Notes under the pieces: model-generated
Told to the model about the DNA's origin: nothing
Database searches by the model: none
Seen by the model: only the letters and a program-made list of their open reading frames with translations
Program-made: the position numbers and the translations under genes
NCBI GenBank assembly: GCA_034520885.1
Contig: JAXHNE010000001.1
Location: forward strand, 1 to 43,684
DNA length: 43,684 nucleotides
Source: Candidatus Saccharimonadota bacterium
GTDB lineage: Bacteria; Patescibacteriota; Saccharimonadia; Saccharimonadales; JAXHNE01
Reading direction: 5' to 3'
Shown: piece by piece, positions 3,049 to 32,310 of the stretch
Layout: each line of letters opens with the position of its first letter
Numbering within the stretch: position 1 is the stretch's first letter

Positions 3049-3729
3049 AGAACAGCCACCTCAGCTTACAGAAGGTCAAGGGCATATCTGGGCACACAAT
3101 ACTGGAGGTGAGCATGCAAACAAGTTCATTGGAACTGAAGTCAATGAATTTAACGGACTTAGGCAATATCTTGATCCTGTTCCTGAAGAGCTAACACAAG
3201 ATGAAGTATTTGAGTTGATGTATAGCGATGGTCAAGAAGTCGTATTTGGGCACATTGTTCCGCCGGAATATGACGAGCAGTTGGGGCACGTCTGGCCGGG
3301 TCTATAGCGGTTAGGAATATTAATCCTGAAGAATTTGAGTACCGCATAACAATGACTGAGCTTGTGGTAGCTCCTGAGCATAGATTTCAAGGAGTCGCAA
3401 GCTGGTTGATAGGGCGGTCGCTTGAACTTATAGCCCATGACCCCAGGCTACAACCCACCGAACTGGCAATAGATGCTTCAGTATTTTCAATTGATGAAGG
3501 ATTTAGAGAAAAGTTATATGAGTTTGGCTTTCGCCACCAGCTTGATGACAATAGCCCAGCACTTTGGTTGCCTGGCAATACGCTACAGCCAAGATTTGAT
3601 TGGGATGACCCAGATTTTAAGCCAGACATTGAAGAAATCATAGCCAGAATGCCAGATAACTGGAACGGTCATTTACCTTTTAGTATTGAGCAAGATGGCA
3701 AGACAAGAATTTACAGAATGGCCAAGTAG
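3038..3729 (+). CDS. GNAT-family N-acetyltransferase-like protein, split by a frameshift near 3300
   Basis: Acetyl-CoA-binding motif A-like LVVAPEHRFQGVASWLI in 3352..3729; 3038..3307 is the probable N-terminal half. Confidence 0.55.
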
Positions 3730-4024
3730 TAGGATCATATAAACGCATTACAGATAGTCAAGAGTTTGTTGAAGATAGAGGTTCGTTTGTATCCGACTAT
3801 CAAATATTGATGCCGAAGGAAGCGAAGCCGACAAACTTGAAGCAGCTGGCCATGATGAAGCAAGCATCTACATTTTAAATAAGTTAACAAACTTTGAGGT
3901 TTCAGACGATGGCAACGCCTGAAGAAAACCCGTCTAAGCTAAGCTCAGGAGCGTACGAAAAAGCACATCACTTTGCTCAGGGTGCCATAATGGGAGGTGG
4001 TTACTTAATGGCTTAGGTTCGAAC

Positions 4025-24807: not shown

Positions 24808-26891
24808 TGGCAGGAAAGAAATATCCACTAGGAAAAATTAGAAACATCGGGATTATCGCGCATATTGACGCAGGTAAAACCACCGTGACGGAAGGTATTT
24901 TGTACCGCACCGGTATTAAGCACAAGGTCGGGGCCGTGCACGAAGGCGAAACCACGACCGACTGGATGACACAGGAACGCGAGCGCGGCATCACCATCGT
25001 ATCCGCCGCCGTGACCTGTTACTGGAAAGACCACCAGGTCAACATTATTGATACTCCCGGACACATCGACTTTACCGTGGAGGTAGAGCGTTCACTTCGT
25101 GTGCTGGACGGCGCCGTGGTGGTGTTCGATGGCAAGATGGGCGTGGAAAGCCAGTCCGAAACCGTCTGGCGCCAGGCCGATAAATACAACGTGCCGCGTA
25201 TTTGCTTTATCAACAAGATCAACCAAACCGGCGGCGATTTTTACAAGTCACTGGAATCCATCCATAAACGCCTGTCTACCCGTGCTTTCCCGATTCACCT
25301 GCCAATCGGGTTCGAGCAAGGAGTTAACGGCGTGGTGGACTTAATCTCCATGAAAGCCTACACCTATAACGAATTTTTGGACAAAAACTTGACCGAAACC
25401 GAAGTTCCCGAGGACATGCAAGACAAGGTCAAAAAATACCGTTCGCTTTTGATCGAAAACGCCGTAGCGGAAGACGAAGAGTACCTGGAGAAGTTCCTGG
25501 AAGTCGGCGAAGAAGGCCTGAGCGAAGAAGACATCCGCCACGCGGTACGCCAAGCGACGCTGACCGGTAAATTTTTCCCGGTTAGCGGCGGAGACGGCCG
25601 CGGCGTTATCGTGGAAAAAGTTTTGGACATGGTGAACGGCCTGCTACCAAGTCCGATTGACCGCGGTGCTACCTGGGGCAAGCATCCCAAGACGGAAGAA
25701 GATATGTCCCGCGAACCGAGCGAAGACGGCCCTATGGCCGGATTGGCGTTTAAGATTACTTCCGACCCGTACGTTGGAAAATTGGCGTACTTCCGCGTCT
25801 ACTCCGGCGTATTGAAAGCCGGATCGTACGTGATGAATACTTCCACCGGCGATAAAGAACGCGTGGGACGTATCGTGCGTATGCAAGCCGACAAGCGCGA
25901 GGAAGTCGACCAAGTCGGCGCCGGCGACATTGCCGCGATCGTGGGGCTAAAATCCACCACCACCGGCGATACACTGTGCGATCAAAACGACCAGATCGTG
26001 CTGGAAAACATCACCTTCCCCGAACCGCCCGTTAGCATCGCCATTGAACCCAAGACCAAAGCCGACCAAGAAAAGATGAGCCAGGCCTTGCAGCGATTAG
26101 CGGAAGAAGATCCGACCTTTAAGGTGCAGGTGGATGACGAAACCGGCCAAACCATCATTAGTGGCATGGGCGAGCTTCACCTGGAGATTTTGGTAGACCG
26201 CATGAAGCTGGAATTCAAAGTGGAAGCCAACATCGGTGCGCCACAAGTGGCTTACCGTGAAACCATCCGCCGTGACGGCGTAGAAGCCCAAGGGAAGTTC
26301 ATTCGACAATCCGGAGGCCGCGGACAATACGGTGACGTTTGGCTACGCTTGAGCCAAAACGAGTCCGGCGCGGGCTTTGAGTTCATCAACTCCATTAAGG
26401 GAGGCGTGGTGCCGCAGGAATACATCAAACCGGTCCAACAAGGTATCGAACAAGCCATGAGCAACGGTGTCGTGGCCGGATACCCGGTCGTGGACGTCAA
26501 AGCCGAACTGTATGACGGAAGTTACCACGACGTTGACTCCAGTGAAATGGCGTTCTCTGCCGCCGGCTCCATCGCATTTAAAGAAGGCATGAAAAAGGCC
26601 AAGCCAACGCTTTTGGAACCCATCATGAAAGTCGTGGTGGTCACCCCGGAAGAGTTCATGGGCGACGTGATCGGCGACTTGAATTCCAAGCGCGGACGCG
26701 TGGAATCCATGGAAGACCTCACCCCCGGCGTGAAGGAAATTACCGGATTCGTACCCCTTGGCGAAATGTTCGGCTATACGACGAATCTACGATCCACGAC
26801 CCAAGGCCGGGCCAGCTCCAGCATGGAACTAGATCACTACGACGACGTCCCCGGCAACGTCGCCGAAGCCATTGCCGCCAAGACCGAATAA
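24807..26891 (+). CDS. fusA: Elongation factor G
   Basis: AHIDAGKTT, RGITI, DTPGH, GMGELHL, QSGGRGQYG; 694 aa. Confidence 0.99.
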   Translation: MAGKKYPLGKIRNIGIIAHIDAGKTTVTEGILYRTGIKHKVGAVHEGETTTDWMTQERERGITIVSAAVTCYWKDHQVNIIDTPGHIDFTVEVERSLRVLDGAVVVFDGKMGVESQSETVWRQADKYNVPRICFINKINQTGGDFYKSLESIHKRLSTRAFPIHLPIGFEQGVNGVVDLISMKAYTYNEFLDKNLTETEVPEDMQDKVKKYRSLLIENAVAEDEEYLEKFLEVGEEGLSEEDIRHAVRQATLTGKFFPVSGGDGRGVIVEKVLDMVNGLLPSPIDRGATWGKHPKTEEDMSREPSEDGPMAGLAFKITSDPYVGKLAYFRVYSGVLKAGSYVMNTSTGDKERVGRIVRMQADKREEVDQVGAGDIAAIVGLKSTTTGDTLCDQNDQIVLENITFPEPPVSIAIEPKTKADQEKMSQALQRLAEEDPTFKVQVDDETGQTIISGMGELHLEILVDRMKLEFKVEANIGAPQVAYRETIRRDGVEAQGKFIRQSGGRGQYGDVWLRLSQNESGAGFEFINSIKGGVVPQEYIKPVQQGIEQAMSNGVVAGYPVVDVKAELYDGSYHDVDSSEMAFSAAGSIAFKEGMKKAKPTLLEPIMKVVVVTPEEFMGDVIGDLNSKRGRVESMEDLTPGVKEITGFVPLGEMFGYTTNLRSTTQGRASSSMELDHYDDVPGNVAEAIAAKTE

Positions 26892-28265: not shown

Positions 28266-29450
28266 ATGGCAGATTTTGATCGATCAAAGCCACACATTAA
28301 CGTCGGTACCATGGGTCACGTTGACCACGGTAAAACGACCCTGACGGCGGCAATCACGACCGTACTTGCCAAAAAAGTACCAACCGAAGTCAATAAGCAA
28401 ATCGCTTACGACGAGATTGACAAAGCGCCGGAAGAAAAAACCCGCGGGATTACCATTTCCACGTCGCACCAAGAGTACGAAAGCGAAAACCGGCACTACG
28501 CTCACGTGGATATGCCCGGGCACGCGGACTACGTAAAAAATATGATTACCGGCGCCGCGCAGGTTGACGGAGCCATTTTGGTAGTTTCCGCCGCTGACGG
28601 CCCCATGCCGCAAACTCGCGAACATGTGCTTTTGGCTCGCCAAGTCGGCGTACCGAAAATCGTGGTTTTCATGAATAAGATGGACCTCGCGGACCCGGAA
28701 CTGGTTGAGTTGGTAGAAATGGACATCCGTGAACTGCTAACCAATAATGACTTTGACGGTGACAACGCGCCGATCATCAAGGGCTCCGCCACCAAAGCTT
28801 TGGAGGGCTCCGAAGAAGACGAAAACGCCGTTATGGACTTGGTAAAAGCCATGGACGACTACATTGAAGAACCCAAGCGCGACCTGGACAAAAGCTTCCT
28901 TATGCCAGTTGAGGACGTGTTCTCTATCAAGGGTCGTGGAACGGTTGCAACCGGCCGTATCGAACAAGGCGTTGCCAAAGTCAACGACGAAGTTGAGATT
29001 GTCGGCGTTAAGGACACGCAAAAGTCGGTGATTACCGGAATCGAAATGTTCAAGAAATCACTTGACCAAGGGCAAGCCGGAGACAACGCCGGTATCCTGC
29101 TCCGCGGTATTGAGCGTGATGACATTGAGCGTGGACAGGTGCTTTGCAAGCCCGGTTCAATCACTCCGCACACAGAGTTCGAAGCCGAAGTGTATATCCT
29201 TAAGAAAGAAGAAGGCGGACGACACACGCCATTCTTCAAGGGCTACAAACCGCAGTTCTACTTCCGAACCACGGACGTGACCGGCGAGGTTGAATTGCCG
29301 GCCGACAAAGAAATGGTTATGCCCGGTGATACGGTAACTTTCAACGTGAAGCTATTGCAGCCGATCGCTATGGACCAAGGGCTTCGCTTCGCTATCCGCG
29401 AAGGCGGCCGAACAGTTGGAGCAGGAGTTGTAACCAAGATCTCCAAGTAA
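28266..29450 (+). CDS. tuf: Elongation factor Tu
   Basis: [28 protein letters not shown]. Confidence 0.99.
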
Positions 29451-29535: not shown

Positions 29536-29926
29536 CGGTGCGCGTGAGCAGTATTTATATACAGCTCACTTGCGCTCCTCGCGAAGAACTTCCAACCTGC
29601 ACTCAAATACGCGTGTCGCTTCTGTGTATTTGAATCTATTGAAAAGACGGATCGTAAACTAGCACAGTGTGTGAATCCCTCAGGTGTTAAGTCGTCCATA
29701 ATTTTTTCGGTGCGCGTGAGCAGTATTTATATACAGCTCACTTGCGCTCCACGCGAAGAACTTCCAACCTGCACTCAAATACGCGTGTCGCTTCTGTGTA
29801 TTTGAATCTATTGAAAAGACGGATCGTAAACTAGCACAGTGTGTGAATCCCTCAGGCTTTAAGTCGTTCGTGATTCTTTCTGGTGCCGCTCCTCGTGAGG
29901 AACCTCCAAACTACACTCAAGTACGT
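29536..29926. repeat. 172-bp tandem repeat: two near-identical units and a diverged partial third
   Basis: Units start at 29536, 29708 and ~29881; internal hairpin gtgagcagtat-ttat-atacagctcac. Confidence 0.9.
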
Positions 29927-30608: not shown

Positions 30609-30698
30609 ACAGGTTGTAGGTTAGAGGTTGTAGGTTCGAGAATATCGCTAAAACCTAACACCTAAAACCTAACACCTGTGCTCATGAAAGGAGCACCA
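30609..30698 (+). repeat. Heptamer-hairpin element in the rpsJ leader
   Basis: AGGTTnn x4 against AA(A/C)ACCT x4, followed by GTGCTC-atgaaag-GAGCAC covering the SD. Confidence 0.8.
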
Positions 30699-31040
30699 AT
30701 GGCAGAAGCCAAAAAAGCAGCCGCGACGGGGAGCAATACCTCAAAGATTCGTATTCGCCTGAAGGCGTACGACCACAAAGTAATCGATCAGTCCGCCAAG
30801 CAGATCGTGGACACCGTTATTCGTACCGGTGCCAAGATTGCCGGGCCGATCCCGCTGCCTACCAAGCGAACGGTTTACACGGTAGTGAAGAGTCCGCACG
30901 TGTATAAAAAGGGGCGCGAACAGTTCGAAATGCGCGTACACAAACGCATTATCGACGTGTTAGAACCCACGCCGAAAACCATTGATTCGCTCATGAATCT
31001 CAGTTTGCCCGCGGGATGCGACGCCGAAATCAAAATGTAA
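30699..31040 (+). CDS. rpsJ: 30S ribosomal protein S10
   Basis: [44 protein letters not shown]. Confidence 0.99.
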
Positions 31041-31055
31041 TTAGCCGGATGCTTG

Positions 31056-31209
31056 CCCCGTAGTAAAGCGAAGCTTTCACTACCGGGGTGATGCAGAGAT
31101 AAAAATGTAATTTTCCCCCGTAGTAAAGCGAAGCTTTCACTACCGGGGCGACGCTGAGATAAAAATGTAGTTTGCCTCCGTAGTGAAGCGTAGCTTTCAA
31201 GCGAAGCCG
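31056..31209. repeat. 60-bp-period array of palindromic hairpins alternating with copies of the rpsJ 3' end
   Basis: CCCCGTAGTAAAGCGAAGCTTTCACTACCGGGG at 31056 and 31116, degenerate at ~31175; DAEIKM* codons at 31090 and 31150. Confidence 0.9.
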
Positions 31210-31223
31210 TAAAATTCTATGTG

Positions 31224-31251
31224 AAACCATGTCAACATGTTGACATGGTTT
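31224..31251. repeat. 28-bp perfect palindrome
   Basis: AAACCATGTCAACATGTTGACATGGTTT equals its own reverse complement. Confidence 0.9.
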
Positions 31252-31278
31252 TATGTTTTACCCCAGTTCGTGAAACTT

Positions 31279-31884
31279 TCACGTAGTGGCGGCGCGGGCG
31301 GCGGCCAGAAGTATGAATATTCCCGTGGAGTTGATGACGAAAATGATCGGAAGGAGTTTCCGTATAGGGGTTTTGGTGAGCCCCAACAAGCCCAGCCCGG
31401 CTTCGTCCGGCAGCGGGGAGGCCAAAAAGAACATGCCCACTAATACCGCGATCGGACGGAACTTTTTGGTGCGCATTTGCCGGATTATCGGGGTAATGCC
31501 ATATTTTTTTACTAGCGGCTTAAGCTCGTACCCGACTTTCTCTTCAAAGAATTGCAAGATAATCCAGTCCCCAATAATCGTGCCTGCCCCGGCGACCATG
31601 GCCATAAGCACTAAATTATAGTCCCCGGCCAGGGAAATAAGTAGTAACGTGGCCGGTGCCGCGGTAAAAAACGATACGAACAGTATCCCTAGTAAAAATA
31701 TCCCGAGCAAGCCCGTTTCTTTGATCGTAAGCAACAAACCTTGAATCAAAGCGGTGTCCAGGAGCAATATGAACAAACCAACGATAATCAATGAAAGCAG
31801 GGTGTGTTTGAACCCAAATTCGCGCCACCACCGTGCCGGTCGGCTATGCCTGTAGTGATAGGGTCGTTTTTTTCTTTTTGCCAT
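31279..31884 (-). CDS. Membrane protein, DedA/VTT (SNARE-associated)-like
   Basis: Several transmembrane segments; GAGTIIGD and SPLPDEAG patterns; TGTTATACT upstream. Confidence 0.7.
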   Translation of the reverse strand: MAKRKKRPYHYRHSRPARWWREFGFKHTLLSLIIVGLFILLLDTALIQGLLLTIKETGLLGIFLLGILFVSFFTAAPATLLLISLAGDYNLVLMAMVAGAGTIIGDWIILQFFEEKVGYELKPLVKKYGITPIIRQMRTKKFRPIAVLVGMFFLASPLPDEAGLGLLGLTKTPIRKLLPIIFVINSTGIFILLAAARAATT

Positions 31885-32040
31885 CCGCCTTTAAGTATAA
31901 CAAACGGCTTACGCTAAACGTAACTCAATCGAAGAACATCTCTTTATCGGGCCAATCGCGTGAAGTAAACGAAGCGGTTGTCGCCGCGATATAGTTGCAG
32001 CGAACGCCACGAGCCAATACAGTGTGATATAAACAACAAG

Positions 32041-32068
32041 TTGACAGAGGCGCGCGTGGGGTGATACT
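32041..32068 (+). promoter_or_regulatory. Candidate promoter for the rplC-led operon
   Basis: TTGACA-16 nt-GATACT followed by a ~240-nt structured leader. Confidence 0.5.
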
Positions 32069-32310
32069 CTAAATCGGTATAACAGAAAAAATCTGTGAAA
32101 ATTGGTGTATTTCGGAAGGTCCGTTTCTGGAATAAAACAGAGACGGAAACCACCAAAACACCAATATTTTTGTGCCAAACCATGACGCAAAATAGCAGAG
32201 ATTAAATAGAGGTCCCAAGAGGAAACTATGAATCCCGTCAGAAATCTACGAGTCGAACACATTGCACGGATTTTAGGCGGGGCGGCCAAAGGAAAGGTAT
32301 TTCAAACGGG

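Follow-up and report, generated by a model that had tools for sequence, protein, structure and literature searches.

Hairpin elements and displaced copies of gene ends downstream of rpsJ and at other conserved genes in Saccharimonadales

Downstream of the stop codon of rpsJ in Candidatus Saccharimonadota bacterium (order Saccharimonadales; assembly GCA_034520885.1), the last codons of the gene appear twice more, each time behind the same hairpin and each time written with other synonymous codons. How did displaced gene ends come to alternate with a hairpin, and why do they keep a coding sense? We analyzed the locus in a window of 43,684 nucleotides (contig JAXHNE010000001.1, positions 1 to 43,684), and its features are listed in Table 1. 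The reading that we prefer, with a probability of about 0.5, is that the hairpin belongs to an element family, named E here, which forms the junction of a duplicated gene terminus, and that a formerly functional end survives in the outer copy as a young fossil.

Table 1 Features of the rpsJ array and its surroundings (positions in the window)
Feature	Position	Strand	Remarks
rpsJ (ribosomal protein S10), intact	30699..31040	+	ORF; Pfam PF00338 Ribosomal_S10, E value 1.6e-35
Linker from the rpsJ stop to the first hairpin element	31041..31050	+	Contains GCC GGA T
Miniature hairpin element, unit 1	31051..31088	+	33-nt core at 31056-31088
Displaced rpsJ end, copy 1	31090..31110	+	GAT GCA GAG ATA AAA ATG TAA
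Miniature hairpin element, unit 2	31111..31148	+	Core at 31116-31148, identical to that of unit 1
Displaced rpsJ end, copy 2	31150..31170	+	GAC GCT GAG ATA AAA ATG TAG
Degenerate, truncated third hairpin unit	31171..31199	+	91% identity to the other units over 22 nt
Perfect 14+14-nt palindrome followed by a T-rich run	31224..31259	.	Inverted repeat; -11.5 kcal/mol, z -4.5
Convergent 201-aa ORF	31279..31884	-	No Pfam family

Tandem Repeats Finder reports a period of 60 with 2.4 copies at 31056-31199, and each 60-nt tandem unit after rpsJ consists of a hairpin and a gene-end copy. The identical 33-nt hairpin that the earlier note had described before each copy is indeed there. The core occurs exactly twice, and two matches were obtained in 0/100 shuffles. 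Folded as single-stranded DNA, the two hairpins give -10.3 and -9.8 kcal/mol (z -3.9 and -3.7, respectively). Unit 1 bears the full left end common to the larger hairpin family, and the left 5 nt of unit 2 are unlike those of unit 1. Units 1 and 2 differ at 7/60 positions, none of them inside the core. An unchanged 33-nt core beside 27 nt with 7 changes speaks against the preferred reading, in that it requires the hairpin to be constrained or the same element to have been supplied repeatedly. The third unit shows no fold (z 0.49), and the DNA after it, at about 31200-31222, may, as a conjecture, be the decayed oldest end copy.

The palindrome beyond the array looks like a terminator between rpsJ and the convergent ORF. 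This ORF belongs to the variable DNA that separates rpsJ from the L3 gene, where related genomes carry other genes. The two hairpins of the array are followed by TGATGC and CGACGC, not by the T-run of an intrinsic terminator. A CRISPR array would have unrelated spacers, whereas the 27-nt stretches here repeat one another and the rpsJ end. The idea that the 3' arm of the hairpin is a recoded rpsJ stretch (LSLPG) was rejected; the same arm was found adjoining ychF.

The functional end of rpsJ (last 7 codons, 31020-31040) reads GAC GCC GAA ATC AAA ATG TAA. This end and both copies translate to DAEIKM-stop, and copy 1 is out of frame with rpsJ. The functional end differs from copy 1 at 4 positions and from copy 2 at 4, and the two copies differ from each other at 3. 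All of these differences are at third codon positions, so the codon comparison bears out the earlier note, which had reported changes of this kind only. In Monte Carlo runs, DAEIKM-stop was kept after 4 random substitutions with P = 2.0e-4 and after 3 with P = 2.4e-3. The linker between the rpsJ stop and the first hairpin contains GCC GGA T, which resembles the GCG GGA T of rpsJ itself just upstream of the duplicated part; comparable short copies of gene sequence lie to the left of the hairpin in other modules.

The same type of rpsJ C-terminus is found in 41/41 related genomes. Alleles ending in the exact codons of the copies were sought, as the earlier note had proposed: one genome (G397) ends in the 18 nt of copy 1, but its upstream codons differ, and no donor was found. 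Most rpsJ examples in other genomes were found by a pattern that demands coding sense, and therefore they are not countable as evidence for wobble-only change. The Smith-Waterman search for decayed rpsJ remnants had a low sensitivity, with a null maximum of 26.

The 33-nt hairpin is a miniature member of family E, whose full-size members are rod-shaped hairpins of 73-95 nt. Eleven full-size members align to the rod, in which 24 pairs are predicted and 11 of them show compensatory changes. The covariance model of the family (R1) matches the rpsJ array at 31051-31148 (33.6 bits, E value 2.9e-5), and in this genome it gives 16 matches at E values ≤1 and 11 at ≤2.2e-7. By the same model, E is present in 14/151 sampled genomes of the order at 1-11 copies per genome, in 0/3 same-genus relatives, and in 0/150 other genomes of a phylum-wide draw. 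Within the samples searched, E is confined to this order of small-genome bacteria. Rfam 15 gave only weak microRNA and sRNA look-alikes, none of which overlaps E. In searches with hairpin patterns, 10 matches in genome contigs of unrelated phyla were taken as chance, as were 3/4 matches in metagenome contigs. The pattern GCTTGCYCCGYAGTAA with up to 1 mismatch hit 36/401 genomes, and its reversed control hit a similar number; only inspected matches of this pattern were used. A non-autonomous hairpin element family is the best explanation of E. Its traits are REP-like, namely an imperfect palindrome with 11-16 copies in this genome, sited at gene termini and forming a rod with covariation. They are not those of a classical MITE, judging from the repeats, which vary in length from 11 to 91 nt and lie 0-156 nt from E on one side.

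The link between the hairpin and displaced gene ends is real and general. An abutting repeat scored above its own null in 18/41 E copies examined, and no abutting repeat was detectable in the other 23/41. At those 18 copies, the sequence that abuts E is a second version, 11-91 nt long, of the terminus of a conserved gene close by, and the repeats are usually diverged. The genes at E, by Pfam, include TsaD, Cpn60, L7/L12, PNPase, UvrB, Fpg, an RNase_T exonuclease, a GNAT acetyltransferase and YchF. At the fpg site, a mirror-image array is formed at the 5' end of the gene. A near-identical 38-nt element follows ychF together with an IEFKL-stop remnant on a metagenome contig (L151), and a full-size E stands at the ychF end in another genome (G126). 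Thus, remnants of other genes beside the hairpin, which the earlier note had proposed to look for, were found with ychF and with the larger relatives elsewhere in this genome. Eight type-A loci had no direct repeats of 11 nt or more in the repeat search, and no neighboring gene was shared among the type-A hairpin loci. In one genome (G004), a more sensitive alignment gave an abutting repeat of 17 nt.

The codon-position bias extends to these genes. In 17 frame-anchored pairs, the differences at the three codon positions number 24, 16 and 71 (71/111 at the third), and the changed codons comprise 56 synonymous and 25 nonsynonymous ones (binomial P 4e-11). A tsaD remnant of 30 codons in another family (G030) differs from the functional end at 36/90 bases and still encodes an intact TsaD C-terminus. 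Because this wobble-rich, frame-keeping pattern recurs at hairpin-flanked duplicates of many genes, the copies are best read as formerly functional ends, and it supports the earlier view that the changes in the rpsJ copies are not the neutral decay of a local duplicate. A sequence motif also accompanies the duplications. The duplicated piece begins right after ATG in 5/12 independent modules (background 0.0134 per position, P 3e-7), and AT stands directly before E in 5/18 rows, among the rows listed.

We propose the following explanation for these sites. Typically, E marks the junction in a short tandem duplication of a conserved gene's 3' or 5' end. Of the two copies, the one still joined to the gene would be the working one. 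The copy beyond E, severed from the gene, would be a young fossil, having functioned as the gene end up to its displacement. Since then, the working copy may have been altered by synonymous drift and, above all, by allele replacement via homologous recombination. As the working copy changes only as selection allows, the differences between copies would be those between functional alleles. Two intact fossils and perhaps a third, decayed one in the rpsJ array would then imply at least two rounds. The remnants age, as seen in the degenerate third unit of the window and in another genome (G160), where a decayed hairpin and a decayed rpsJ remnant stand together. Mosaic tests of which copy is native, made against genus relatives (the nusG and rpsJ windows and both tsaD copies), showed no signal, since nucleotide divergence within the genus already amounts to about 20%.

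As for the origin of the duplication, E may depend for its movement on an enzyme whose gene lies at another site, perhaps a Y1/HUH transposase that works on single-stranded DNA. Such an enzyme would cut after the terminal G-run of E and after an ATG to its left. If an ATG further upstream within the gene were used, the terminal piece of the gene would travel with E, and reinsertion behind this same ATG in a sister chromosome or a homologous one would generate the order gene end, E, gene end. Between this Y1-type over-length excision and the homing described below, we would put about even odds. The broader proposal is that E is a mobile hairpin lacking a recombinase, that on each entry into the terminus of a conserved gene it creates or carries a split terminus duplicate, that its two homology arms, both within one universally conserved gene, allow homing across families, and that it leaves a dated stack of former alleles next to essential genes; it is put forward tentatively, and we hold it to be somewhat improbable.

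The candidate enzymes were examined along these lines. A Y1/HUH transposase gene, which the earlier note had suggested seeking, is present: the genome has one Y1_Tnp gene (229 aa, contig C5). The cognate recombinase that it had also suggested was not found at the rpsJ locus, and the single tyrosine recombinase match (PF00589) in the genome lies on contig C10. Y1_Tnp is present in 10/14 genomes with E and in 35/137 without E (Fisher P 9e-4), a test that overstates the link since related genomes are not independent; a Y1_Tnp match is absent in 4/14 E genomes. Around the Y1 gene of this genome lie four copies of a 27-nt palindrome unrelated to E. Model R1 detected no E there, nor a second one near the Y1 gene in another genome (G057). 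The serial hairpin-associated integrations envisaged earlier are supported in part: the association of the hairpin with the displaced ends holds generally, and no recombinase lies at the locus. A separate integration for each unit would be conjectural, and the copies may have come from another strain or from in-place duplication with later replacement of the working allele.

The alternative that survives best, though we regard it as unlikely, is homing by recombination. Here a unit made up of the new end, the linker, the hairpin and the start of the old end would spread as a small cassette. Its arms would lie in one conserved gene, with the gene body on the left and the first remnant bases on the right, and it would enter probably by natural transformation. 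The recipient's own end would become the new remnant, with one array unit per entry; jointly with the spread itself, these steps are held to be just as unlikely. The patchy distribution of E, including its absence from the same-genus relatives, favors homing, and so do the tsaD and ychF modules, which have the same boundaries across families. In the tsaD modules of two families, the E/remnant boundary is the same and the linker is alignable, with unalignable DNA beyond. The codon bias of the rpsJ duplicates likewise looks like an allele traveling with the module: GAG, a rare Glu codon, occurs in a copy in 7/10 duplicate-bearing genomes and in 0/55 single-copy rpsJ ends. However, the window shows the reverse of six other genomes, with remnants of the GAG type and a functional end of the ordinary type. 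The genome has RecA, DprA and ComEC-type genes. Some inserts that lack E, namely the nusG cassettes and an insert in another genome (G253), likewise lie between terminal duplications, and therefore the duplication may not depend on E; in a search of 30 loci, nusG remnants were found only in this genome.

Transformation experiments offer a parallel to homing. In PMC3784515 and PMC3240628, on insertion-duplication, merodiploidy and homology-facilitated illegitimate recombination, transformation is reported to make duplications and to fix foreign DNA by a single homologous anchor, as may have occurred at E sites; the cases given there are laboratory events with no dedicated hairpin. They predict neither a fixed boundary between hairpin and remnant nor an ATG motif. 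Homing leaves the ATG before the duplicated piece and the AT before E unexplained, as well as the origin of the first split duplicate. Moreover, the right arms are 11-20 nt, very short for RecA-driven exchange.

The sites might also be scars of integrative elements, in which the repeats are attL and attR with the gene end and the hairpin is the residue of an element after internal deletion, comparable to cis-mobilizable elements. According to PMC4701971, streptococcal integrative elements enter housekeeping genes at the 3' or 5' end, rplL and rpsI among them, and their direct repeats of 12-54 bp can hold exactly the 3' end of the target gene. Those elements (ICE/IME) and their deleted derivatives resemble E sites in having direct repeats with the terminal codons of a conserved gene, rplL being targeted in both, in keeping the gene intact with a displaced end left behind, and in allowing tandem accretion, as far as the parts of PMC4701971 and PMC7563491 on this subject go. 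In G253, two 78-nt rpsJ ends enclose an insert of 760 nt that has one ORF, which is also of the kind expected. Contrarily, the insert at E sites is merely a 38-95-nt hairpin, and one E family serves at least ten genes in spite of the single tyrosine recombinase match, which is on another contig. No integrase was found at any locus inspected, the repeats of 11-91 nt are usually not identical, and viral contigs contained 0 stretches matching a 24-nt degenerate rpsJ end. We consider such scars quite improbable.

Present selection on the downstream copies, through recoded translation or through factor binding at the nonwobble positions, would agree with the intactness of the recognized remnants and with an unbiased scan of 66 loci, in which 9/10 same-strand downstream hits keep the AEIKM-stop sense. 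This explanation is very improbable. The frame relative to rpsJ varies across genomes, with spacers of 36, 41, 48, 49, 52, 82 and 129 nt that mix in-frame and out-of-frame lengths, and rpsJ has its own stop codon. The decayed examples (G160 and the third unit) and the similar behavior of remnants of many unrelated genes also argue against it.

An assembly artefact, in which strain variants of the rpsJ end were chained via the repeated hairpin in a metagenome assembly, is hardly credible. The genome is in 11 contigs, the one public run holding the stretch is labeled metagenome, and the contigs of that run break at the repeated 33-mer, all of which could be expected of such an artefact. The read support consists of contigs only, from this one run, which is the probable source sample. 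In these contigs, the flanks have depths of 12.9 and 13.6, the 87-nt piece of hairpin, copy and hairpin has 14.9, and the 33-mer has 32.8. These depths, which come from contigs and not from raw spanning reads, agree with a single array per genome that has at least two hairpins, and the hairpin-bounded piece is at flank depth. The same architecture is found in many separately handled genomes, including genomes of 1 to 6 contigs (G006, G057 and G118). In runs X2 and X3, coverage was limited to a 33-nt conserved part of rpsJ and included none of the array.

Slippage duplication of the 60-nt unit followed by neutral drift fits the tandem layout and the exact 60-nt period, but it is disfavored and next to incredible, as the wobble-only pattern would have to arise by chance at P 2e-4 and 2.4e-3 and the same codon bias holds at other genes (P 4e-11).

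The duplicated-terminus reading can be set beside known palindromic elements. REPs and REPINs with RAYT resemble E in that both are short, imperfect palindromes scattered over gene ends, at times as tandem copies, in a genome with a Y1_Tnp-type gene. In contrast, the palindrome that flanks the Y1 gene here is a different one and not E, and E has a low copy number (1-11 per genome). To our knowledge, REPs have not been described with long, diverged duplications of the neighboring coding end. IS200/IS605 'peel and paste' elements and their miniatures share with E the hairpin-defined ends, the lack of inverted terminal repeats and a short left-flank motif. Dependence on a left-flank motif is established for IS200/IS605, which have two different end hairpins and make no target duplication. 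E differs from them as a single rod with flank repeats of 11-91 nt and with a left-flank ATG in 5/12 modules, and over-length excision in an IS200/IS605-like scheme would be an addition of ours.

Tycheposons are reportedly kilobase elements with their own integrases and with tRNA genes as targets, unlike E. Nevertheless, the rpsJ array resembles the arrays of displaced gene-end fragments at these elements and at islands leaving partial tRNA repeats, where, in the portions of bioRxiv 10.1101/2020.12.28.424599 on this point, displaced-end arrays mark repeated insertions in streamlined genomes. In the article texts searched, exclusive of supplementary files, hairpin elements with diverged gene-end duplications in these bacteria were not found described.

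Since E marks similar leftover gene ends here and in related bacteria, the sites record earlier gene variants. If true, this would be a new lifestyle for a tiny mobile element in a streamlined genome: E within the last codons of essential genes would be harmless because the gene end is duplicated. Under the broader proposal above, the split duplicate would keep the host gene intact, and spread between families would be independent of gene order. If an HUH enzyme is involved, ATG-linked over-length mobilization would be a testable new behavior of this enzyme class. For annotation, such arrays would explain puzzling short coding repeats after stop codons and before start codons. The remnants would be natural fossils of earlier alleles of rpsJ, tsaD, groEL, rplL and further genes, and they could gauge allele replacement by recombination in uncultivated small-genome bacteria, in which it is otherwise hard to observe.

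The array of hairpins and displaced rpsJ 3' ends downstream of rpsJ is real and not a chance arrangement, and it is one conspicuous case of a phenomenon that extends across a whole family. The hairpin occurs twice in exact form, and two matches were obtained in 0 of 100 shuffles; the repeat has a period of 60 and 2.4 copies. The three rpsJ ends differ pairwise at 4, 4, and 3 positions, always in the third base of a codon, and each of them still reads DAEIKM-stop. Under random substitution, four changes would preserve that reading with P 2e-4, and three with P 2.4e-3. Comparison of units 1 and 2 shows 7 mismatches over 60 positions, all outside the hairpin core. The earlier note, which had described two exact hairpins, wobble-only differences, and the common sense DAEIKM-stop, was right in every detail.

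Features of the rpsJ region, with positions in the window
Feature	Position	Remark
ORF read as tuf	28266-29450	Upstream of rpsJ; reading from sequence
rpsJ	30699-31040	Pfam Ribosomal_S10, E 1.6e-35
Linker, 10 nt		Directly 3' of the rpsJ stop codon; from sequence
First 38-nt element	31056-31088 (core)	Core is the 33-nt hairpin; then one base
Copy 1	31090-31110	Last six rpsJ codons and stop
Second element	31116-31148 (core)	Then one base
Copy 2	31150-31170	Last six rpsJ codons and stop
Degenerate third element	31171-31199	3' of copy 2
Perfect 28-nt palindrome, then T-rich run	31224-31259
Convergent 201-aa ORF		Past the palindrome; without Pfam family

Other repeats are also found in this region. 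The 1.2-kb tuf-rpsJ spacer contains a 172-nt tandem repeat (29536-29886; 2.0 copies, 95% matches), and a long inverted repeat made of 14-nt and 7-nt tandem units lies just 5' of rpsJ (30611-30677). Runs of 7-nt tandem repeats are frequent in intergenic DNA across the whole window.

Within its own genome (988,447 bases, 11 contigs), the exact 33-nt hairpin is found at this locus only. The earlier note had proposed a search for the hairpin beside other gene-end remnants, and a scan of metagenomes gave such a case: near-identical 38 nt are located 3' of ychF (Pfam) on contig L151, where the gene ends in IEFKI-stop and the remnant after the element in IEFKL-stop. The left foot of the element recurs in larger hairpins of 73-95 nt in its own and other genomes, which form the family E. 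Eleven of these align to one rod with 24 predicted pairs, 11 of which show compensatory changes, and no Rfam family matched E. R1, a covariance model for E, gives 16 matches in the own genome (11 at E<=2.2e-7) and scores the rpsJ array at 33.6 bits. Among 151 genomes of the order, 14 gave matches (1-11 copies per genome); none of three same-genus relatives did, nor any of 150 other genomes from a phylum-wide draw. Thus, E is patchy and, within the genomes sampled, confined to the order.

The DNA beyond E should be noted. From offset 0-2 past the element, in its own orientation, the sequence repeats a segment slightly upstream, and the gene-side repeat lies 0-156 nt from E. We examined 41 copies of E (15 from the own genome, 25 from 13 other genomes, and one from a metagenome), and 18 are abutted by a repeat whose score exceeds that of its own null. 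The 3' ends duplicated in this way, identified by Pfam, belong to genes for TsaD (91-nt repeat), Cpn60/GroEL, L7/L12, PNPase, UvrB, and a GNAT protein, and the 5' ends to those for Fpg/MutM and an RNase_T exonuclease. The stop codon of the UvrB working copy is located inside E. At fpg the rpsJ arrangement is mirrored: two copies of E alternate with the ribosome-binding region and the first six codons, and these repeated starts depart from the working one at 3 positions, leaving the six amino acids unaltered. E with a gene-end duplication is also found at ychF in genome G126, at a ychF-like 5' end in G057 (identity read from the first residues), and at further sites in other genomes. The tsaD module of genome G030 has the same boundary as that of the own genome and an alignable linker, and the DNA beyond is unalignable.

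An aligned stop or start codon sets the frame in seventeen pairs. The first, second, and third codon positions hold 24, 16, and 71 of their differences, respectively (P 4e-11), and the changed codons comprise 56 synonymous and 25 non-synonymous ones. In the G030 tsaD remnant, 36 of 90 bases do not match the working end, and the remnant still encodes an intact, conservative TsaD C-terminus. This pattern is the divergence signature of functional alleles, not that of a dead copy decaying in place. The view in the earlier note that the changes are not neutral decay of a local duplicate is borne out by these counts, and its core idea, that the rpsJ copies are formerly functional ends tied to the hairpin, is upheld by the allele-like divergence across the family.

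At rpsJ itself, the same type of C-terminus is found in 41 of 41 related genomes. A degenerate AEIKM-stop pattern matched in 285 of 401 genomes of the order (reversed control, 0); this and a few of the other tallies include some genomes flagged as unpublished (G036, G262, G307, G340, and G352), on which no individual claim depends. Two or three close copies lie 3' of rpsJ in ten genomes of eight families, and two more double matches fell at unrelated loci. Adjacent copies share a layout: the stop and 0-12 nt are followed by a brief repeat of the codons immediately upstream (e.g., GGC TGC GAC), then by the hairpin and the remnant. Since this pattern detects only sense-preserving copies, it cannot prove wobble-only change. 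A codon-position-blind scan allowing up to 6 mismatches in 21 nt covered 66 loci, five of them chosen with the biased pattern. Sense was kept in 9 of 10 same-strand downstream matches, all 28 mismatches fell at third positions (junction codon aside), and the 7 control-region matches lacked preserved sense. In G160, of the same genus as two carriers, both hairpin and remnant are decayed. The Glu codon within the last six rpsJ codons is GAA in all 55 single-copy genes (GAG in none), whereas 7 of 10 genomes with duplicates have the rare GAG in one copy, as though a single end allele of rpsJ were moving with the hairpin modules.

The hairpins at rpsJ duplicates are of several types, of which "type A" (~30 nt) is also found at eight non-rpsJ loci. 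Four type A hairpins stand in direct tandem 3' of rpsJ in G057 (locus L064, 1519-1647). The type is dispersed in 9 of 401 genomes with 1-4 copies (loci L076-L088), and abuts a 17-nt flank repeat at one non-rpsJ locus in G004.

The genes rpsJ and that for L3 are not directly adjacent in this order, and various genes intervene: a small membrane protein at 37 of 72 loci and a NUDIX-like gene at 8 of 72 mark the gap as a variable-gene zone. The L3 gene (rplC, read from sequence) has its own promoter-like TTGACA box (window 32030-32310) and a leader of ~150 nt conserved in several genomes of the order (loci L048, L050, and L102), and rpsJ is thus transcriptionally separate from rplC.

A genome-wide scan with the terminal 21-60 nt of open frames revealed further duplicates. 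On contig C3 (28381-29256, locus L115), nusG is followed by two extra versions of its final 12 codons, of which one carries synonymous changes and the other is identical. The three ends, including the functional one, bound small ORFs of 96, 79, and 102 aa without Pfam families, and a 120-aa ORF comes next. At each copy the stop is followed by one base and then the ATG of the next ORF, and the third ORF ends in frame with the identical copy. The arrangement includes no hairpin element and was found at none of 29 nusG loci inspected in other genomes. An 849-aa ORF on C3, read from sequence as a thymidylate-kinase fusion, has a duplicated end with a strong hairpin as insert. Partial diverged 3'-end copies lie 78 nt downstream of the stop of an SmpB-like ORF (C8, reverse strand) and 399 nt downstream of that of an ATP-synthase-gamma-like ORF (C3, reverse strand), both names being readings from sequence. 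In G253 (locus L075, 588-1365), two 78-nt rpsJ 3' ends enclose an insert of 760 nt that carries one reverse-strand ORF. The two ends show seven synonymous differences and one boundary-codon change, counted from sequence; this is a Campbell-type signature without a hairpin element. Terminal duplication is therefore not exclusive to E. Elsewhere, an identical 190-nt tandem duplication lies 3' of a 131-codon open frame (C2, ~25780-26160), and a 36-nt periodic repeat array is found on C6 (~3700-4000).

E marks the duplication junction and is abutted by the outer copy, and the divergence between the two copies is that of alleles. Remnants can decay, and modules at the same gene have boundaries common across families. 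There are two readings of how the duplication may originate. By analogy with IS200/IS605, which depend on a left-flank motif, an enzyme may cut out an over-length unit beginning at an ATG further upstream and re-insert it after the same ATG. This is proposed because an ATG stands directly before the duplicated piece in 5 of 12 independent modules (P 3e-7), AT directly precedes E in 5 of 18 tabulated rows, E terminates in a G-run, and 10 of 14 genomes with E have a Y1/HUH transposase gene versus 35 of 137 without E (P 9e-4, the related genomes not being independent). A gene of the HUH class, which the earlier note had suggested seeking, is present in this genome. However, this Y1 gene has unrelated palindromes of its own and no adjacent E, and 4 genomes with E gave no Y1/HUH match. 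Four copies of a perfect 27-nt palindrome absent elsewhere in the genome surround the sole Y1_Tnp gene (IS200-like/RAYT-like, 229 aa; C5, 6086-7228, locus L108), a REPtron-like arrangement that is separate from the E family. Alternatively, a cassette with both arms in one conserved gene may home by recombination, but this leaves the ATG before the duplicated piece unexplained, and the right arms are very short. Native-copy tests gave no signal because even genus relatives are ~20% diverged. Integration by an integrase is unlikely, since the single tyrosine recombinase match in the genome is on another contig and a single element family is used at ten or more genes.

An assembly artefact is argued against by recurrence of the architecture in many other genomes, some with 1 to 6 contigs. 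The stretch is present in one public run only, a possible source sample available as contigs, which are broken at the repeated 33-mer. The depths (14.9 for the hairpin-bounded piece, 12.9 and 13.6 for the flanks, and 32.8 for the 33-mer) are compatible with the array, short of independent proof.

The closest analogues of E are integrative elements, REP/RAYT, IS200/IS605-type single-strand transposition, and transformation-linked duplication, and E departs from each in a defining property. Integrative elements entering housekeeping gene ends leave 12-54 bp direct repeats containing the gene end, as a passage of PMC4701971 describes, and E has no integrase. Copies of E do not flank a RAYT gene, and E is a single hairpin with long and variable flank repeats, unlike the IS200/IS605 type. 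Transformation-linked duplication, as described in PMC3784515 and PMC3240628, is a close analogue. In the literature searched, no description of E-like elements in these bacteria was found.

We infer that the outer copy is the fossil of an end that was functional until displaced. The inner copy would since have been renewed under selection, chiefly via allele replacement; RecA, DprA, and ComEC are present in the genome. If the outer copies are such fossil ends, the array in the window may be the record of two or three rounds.
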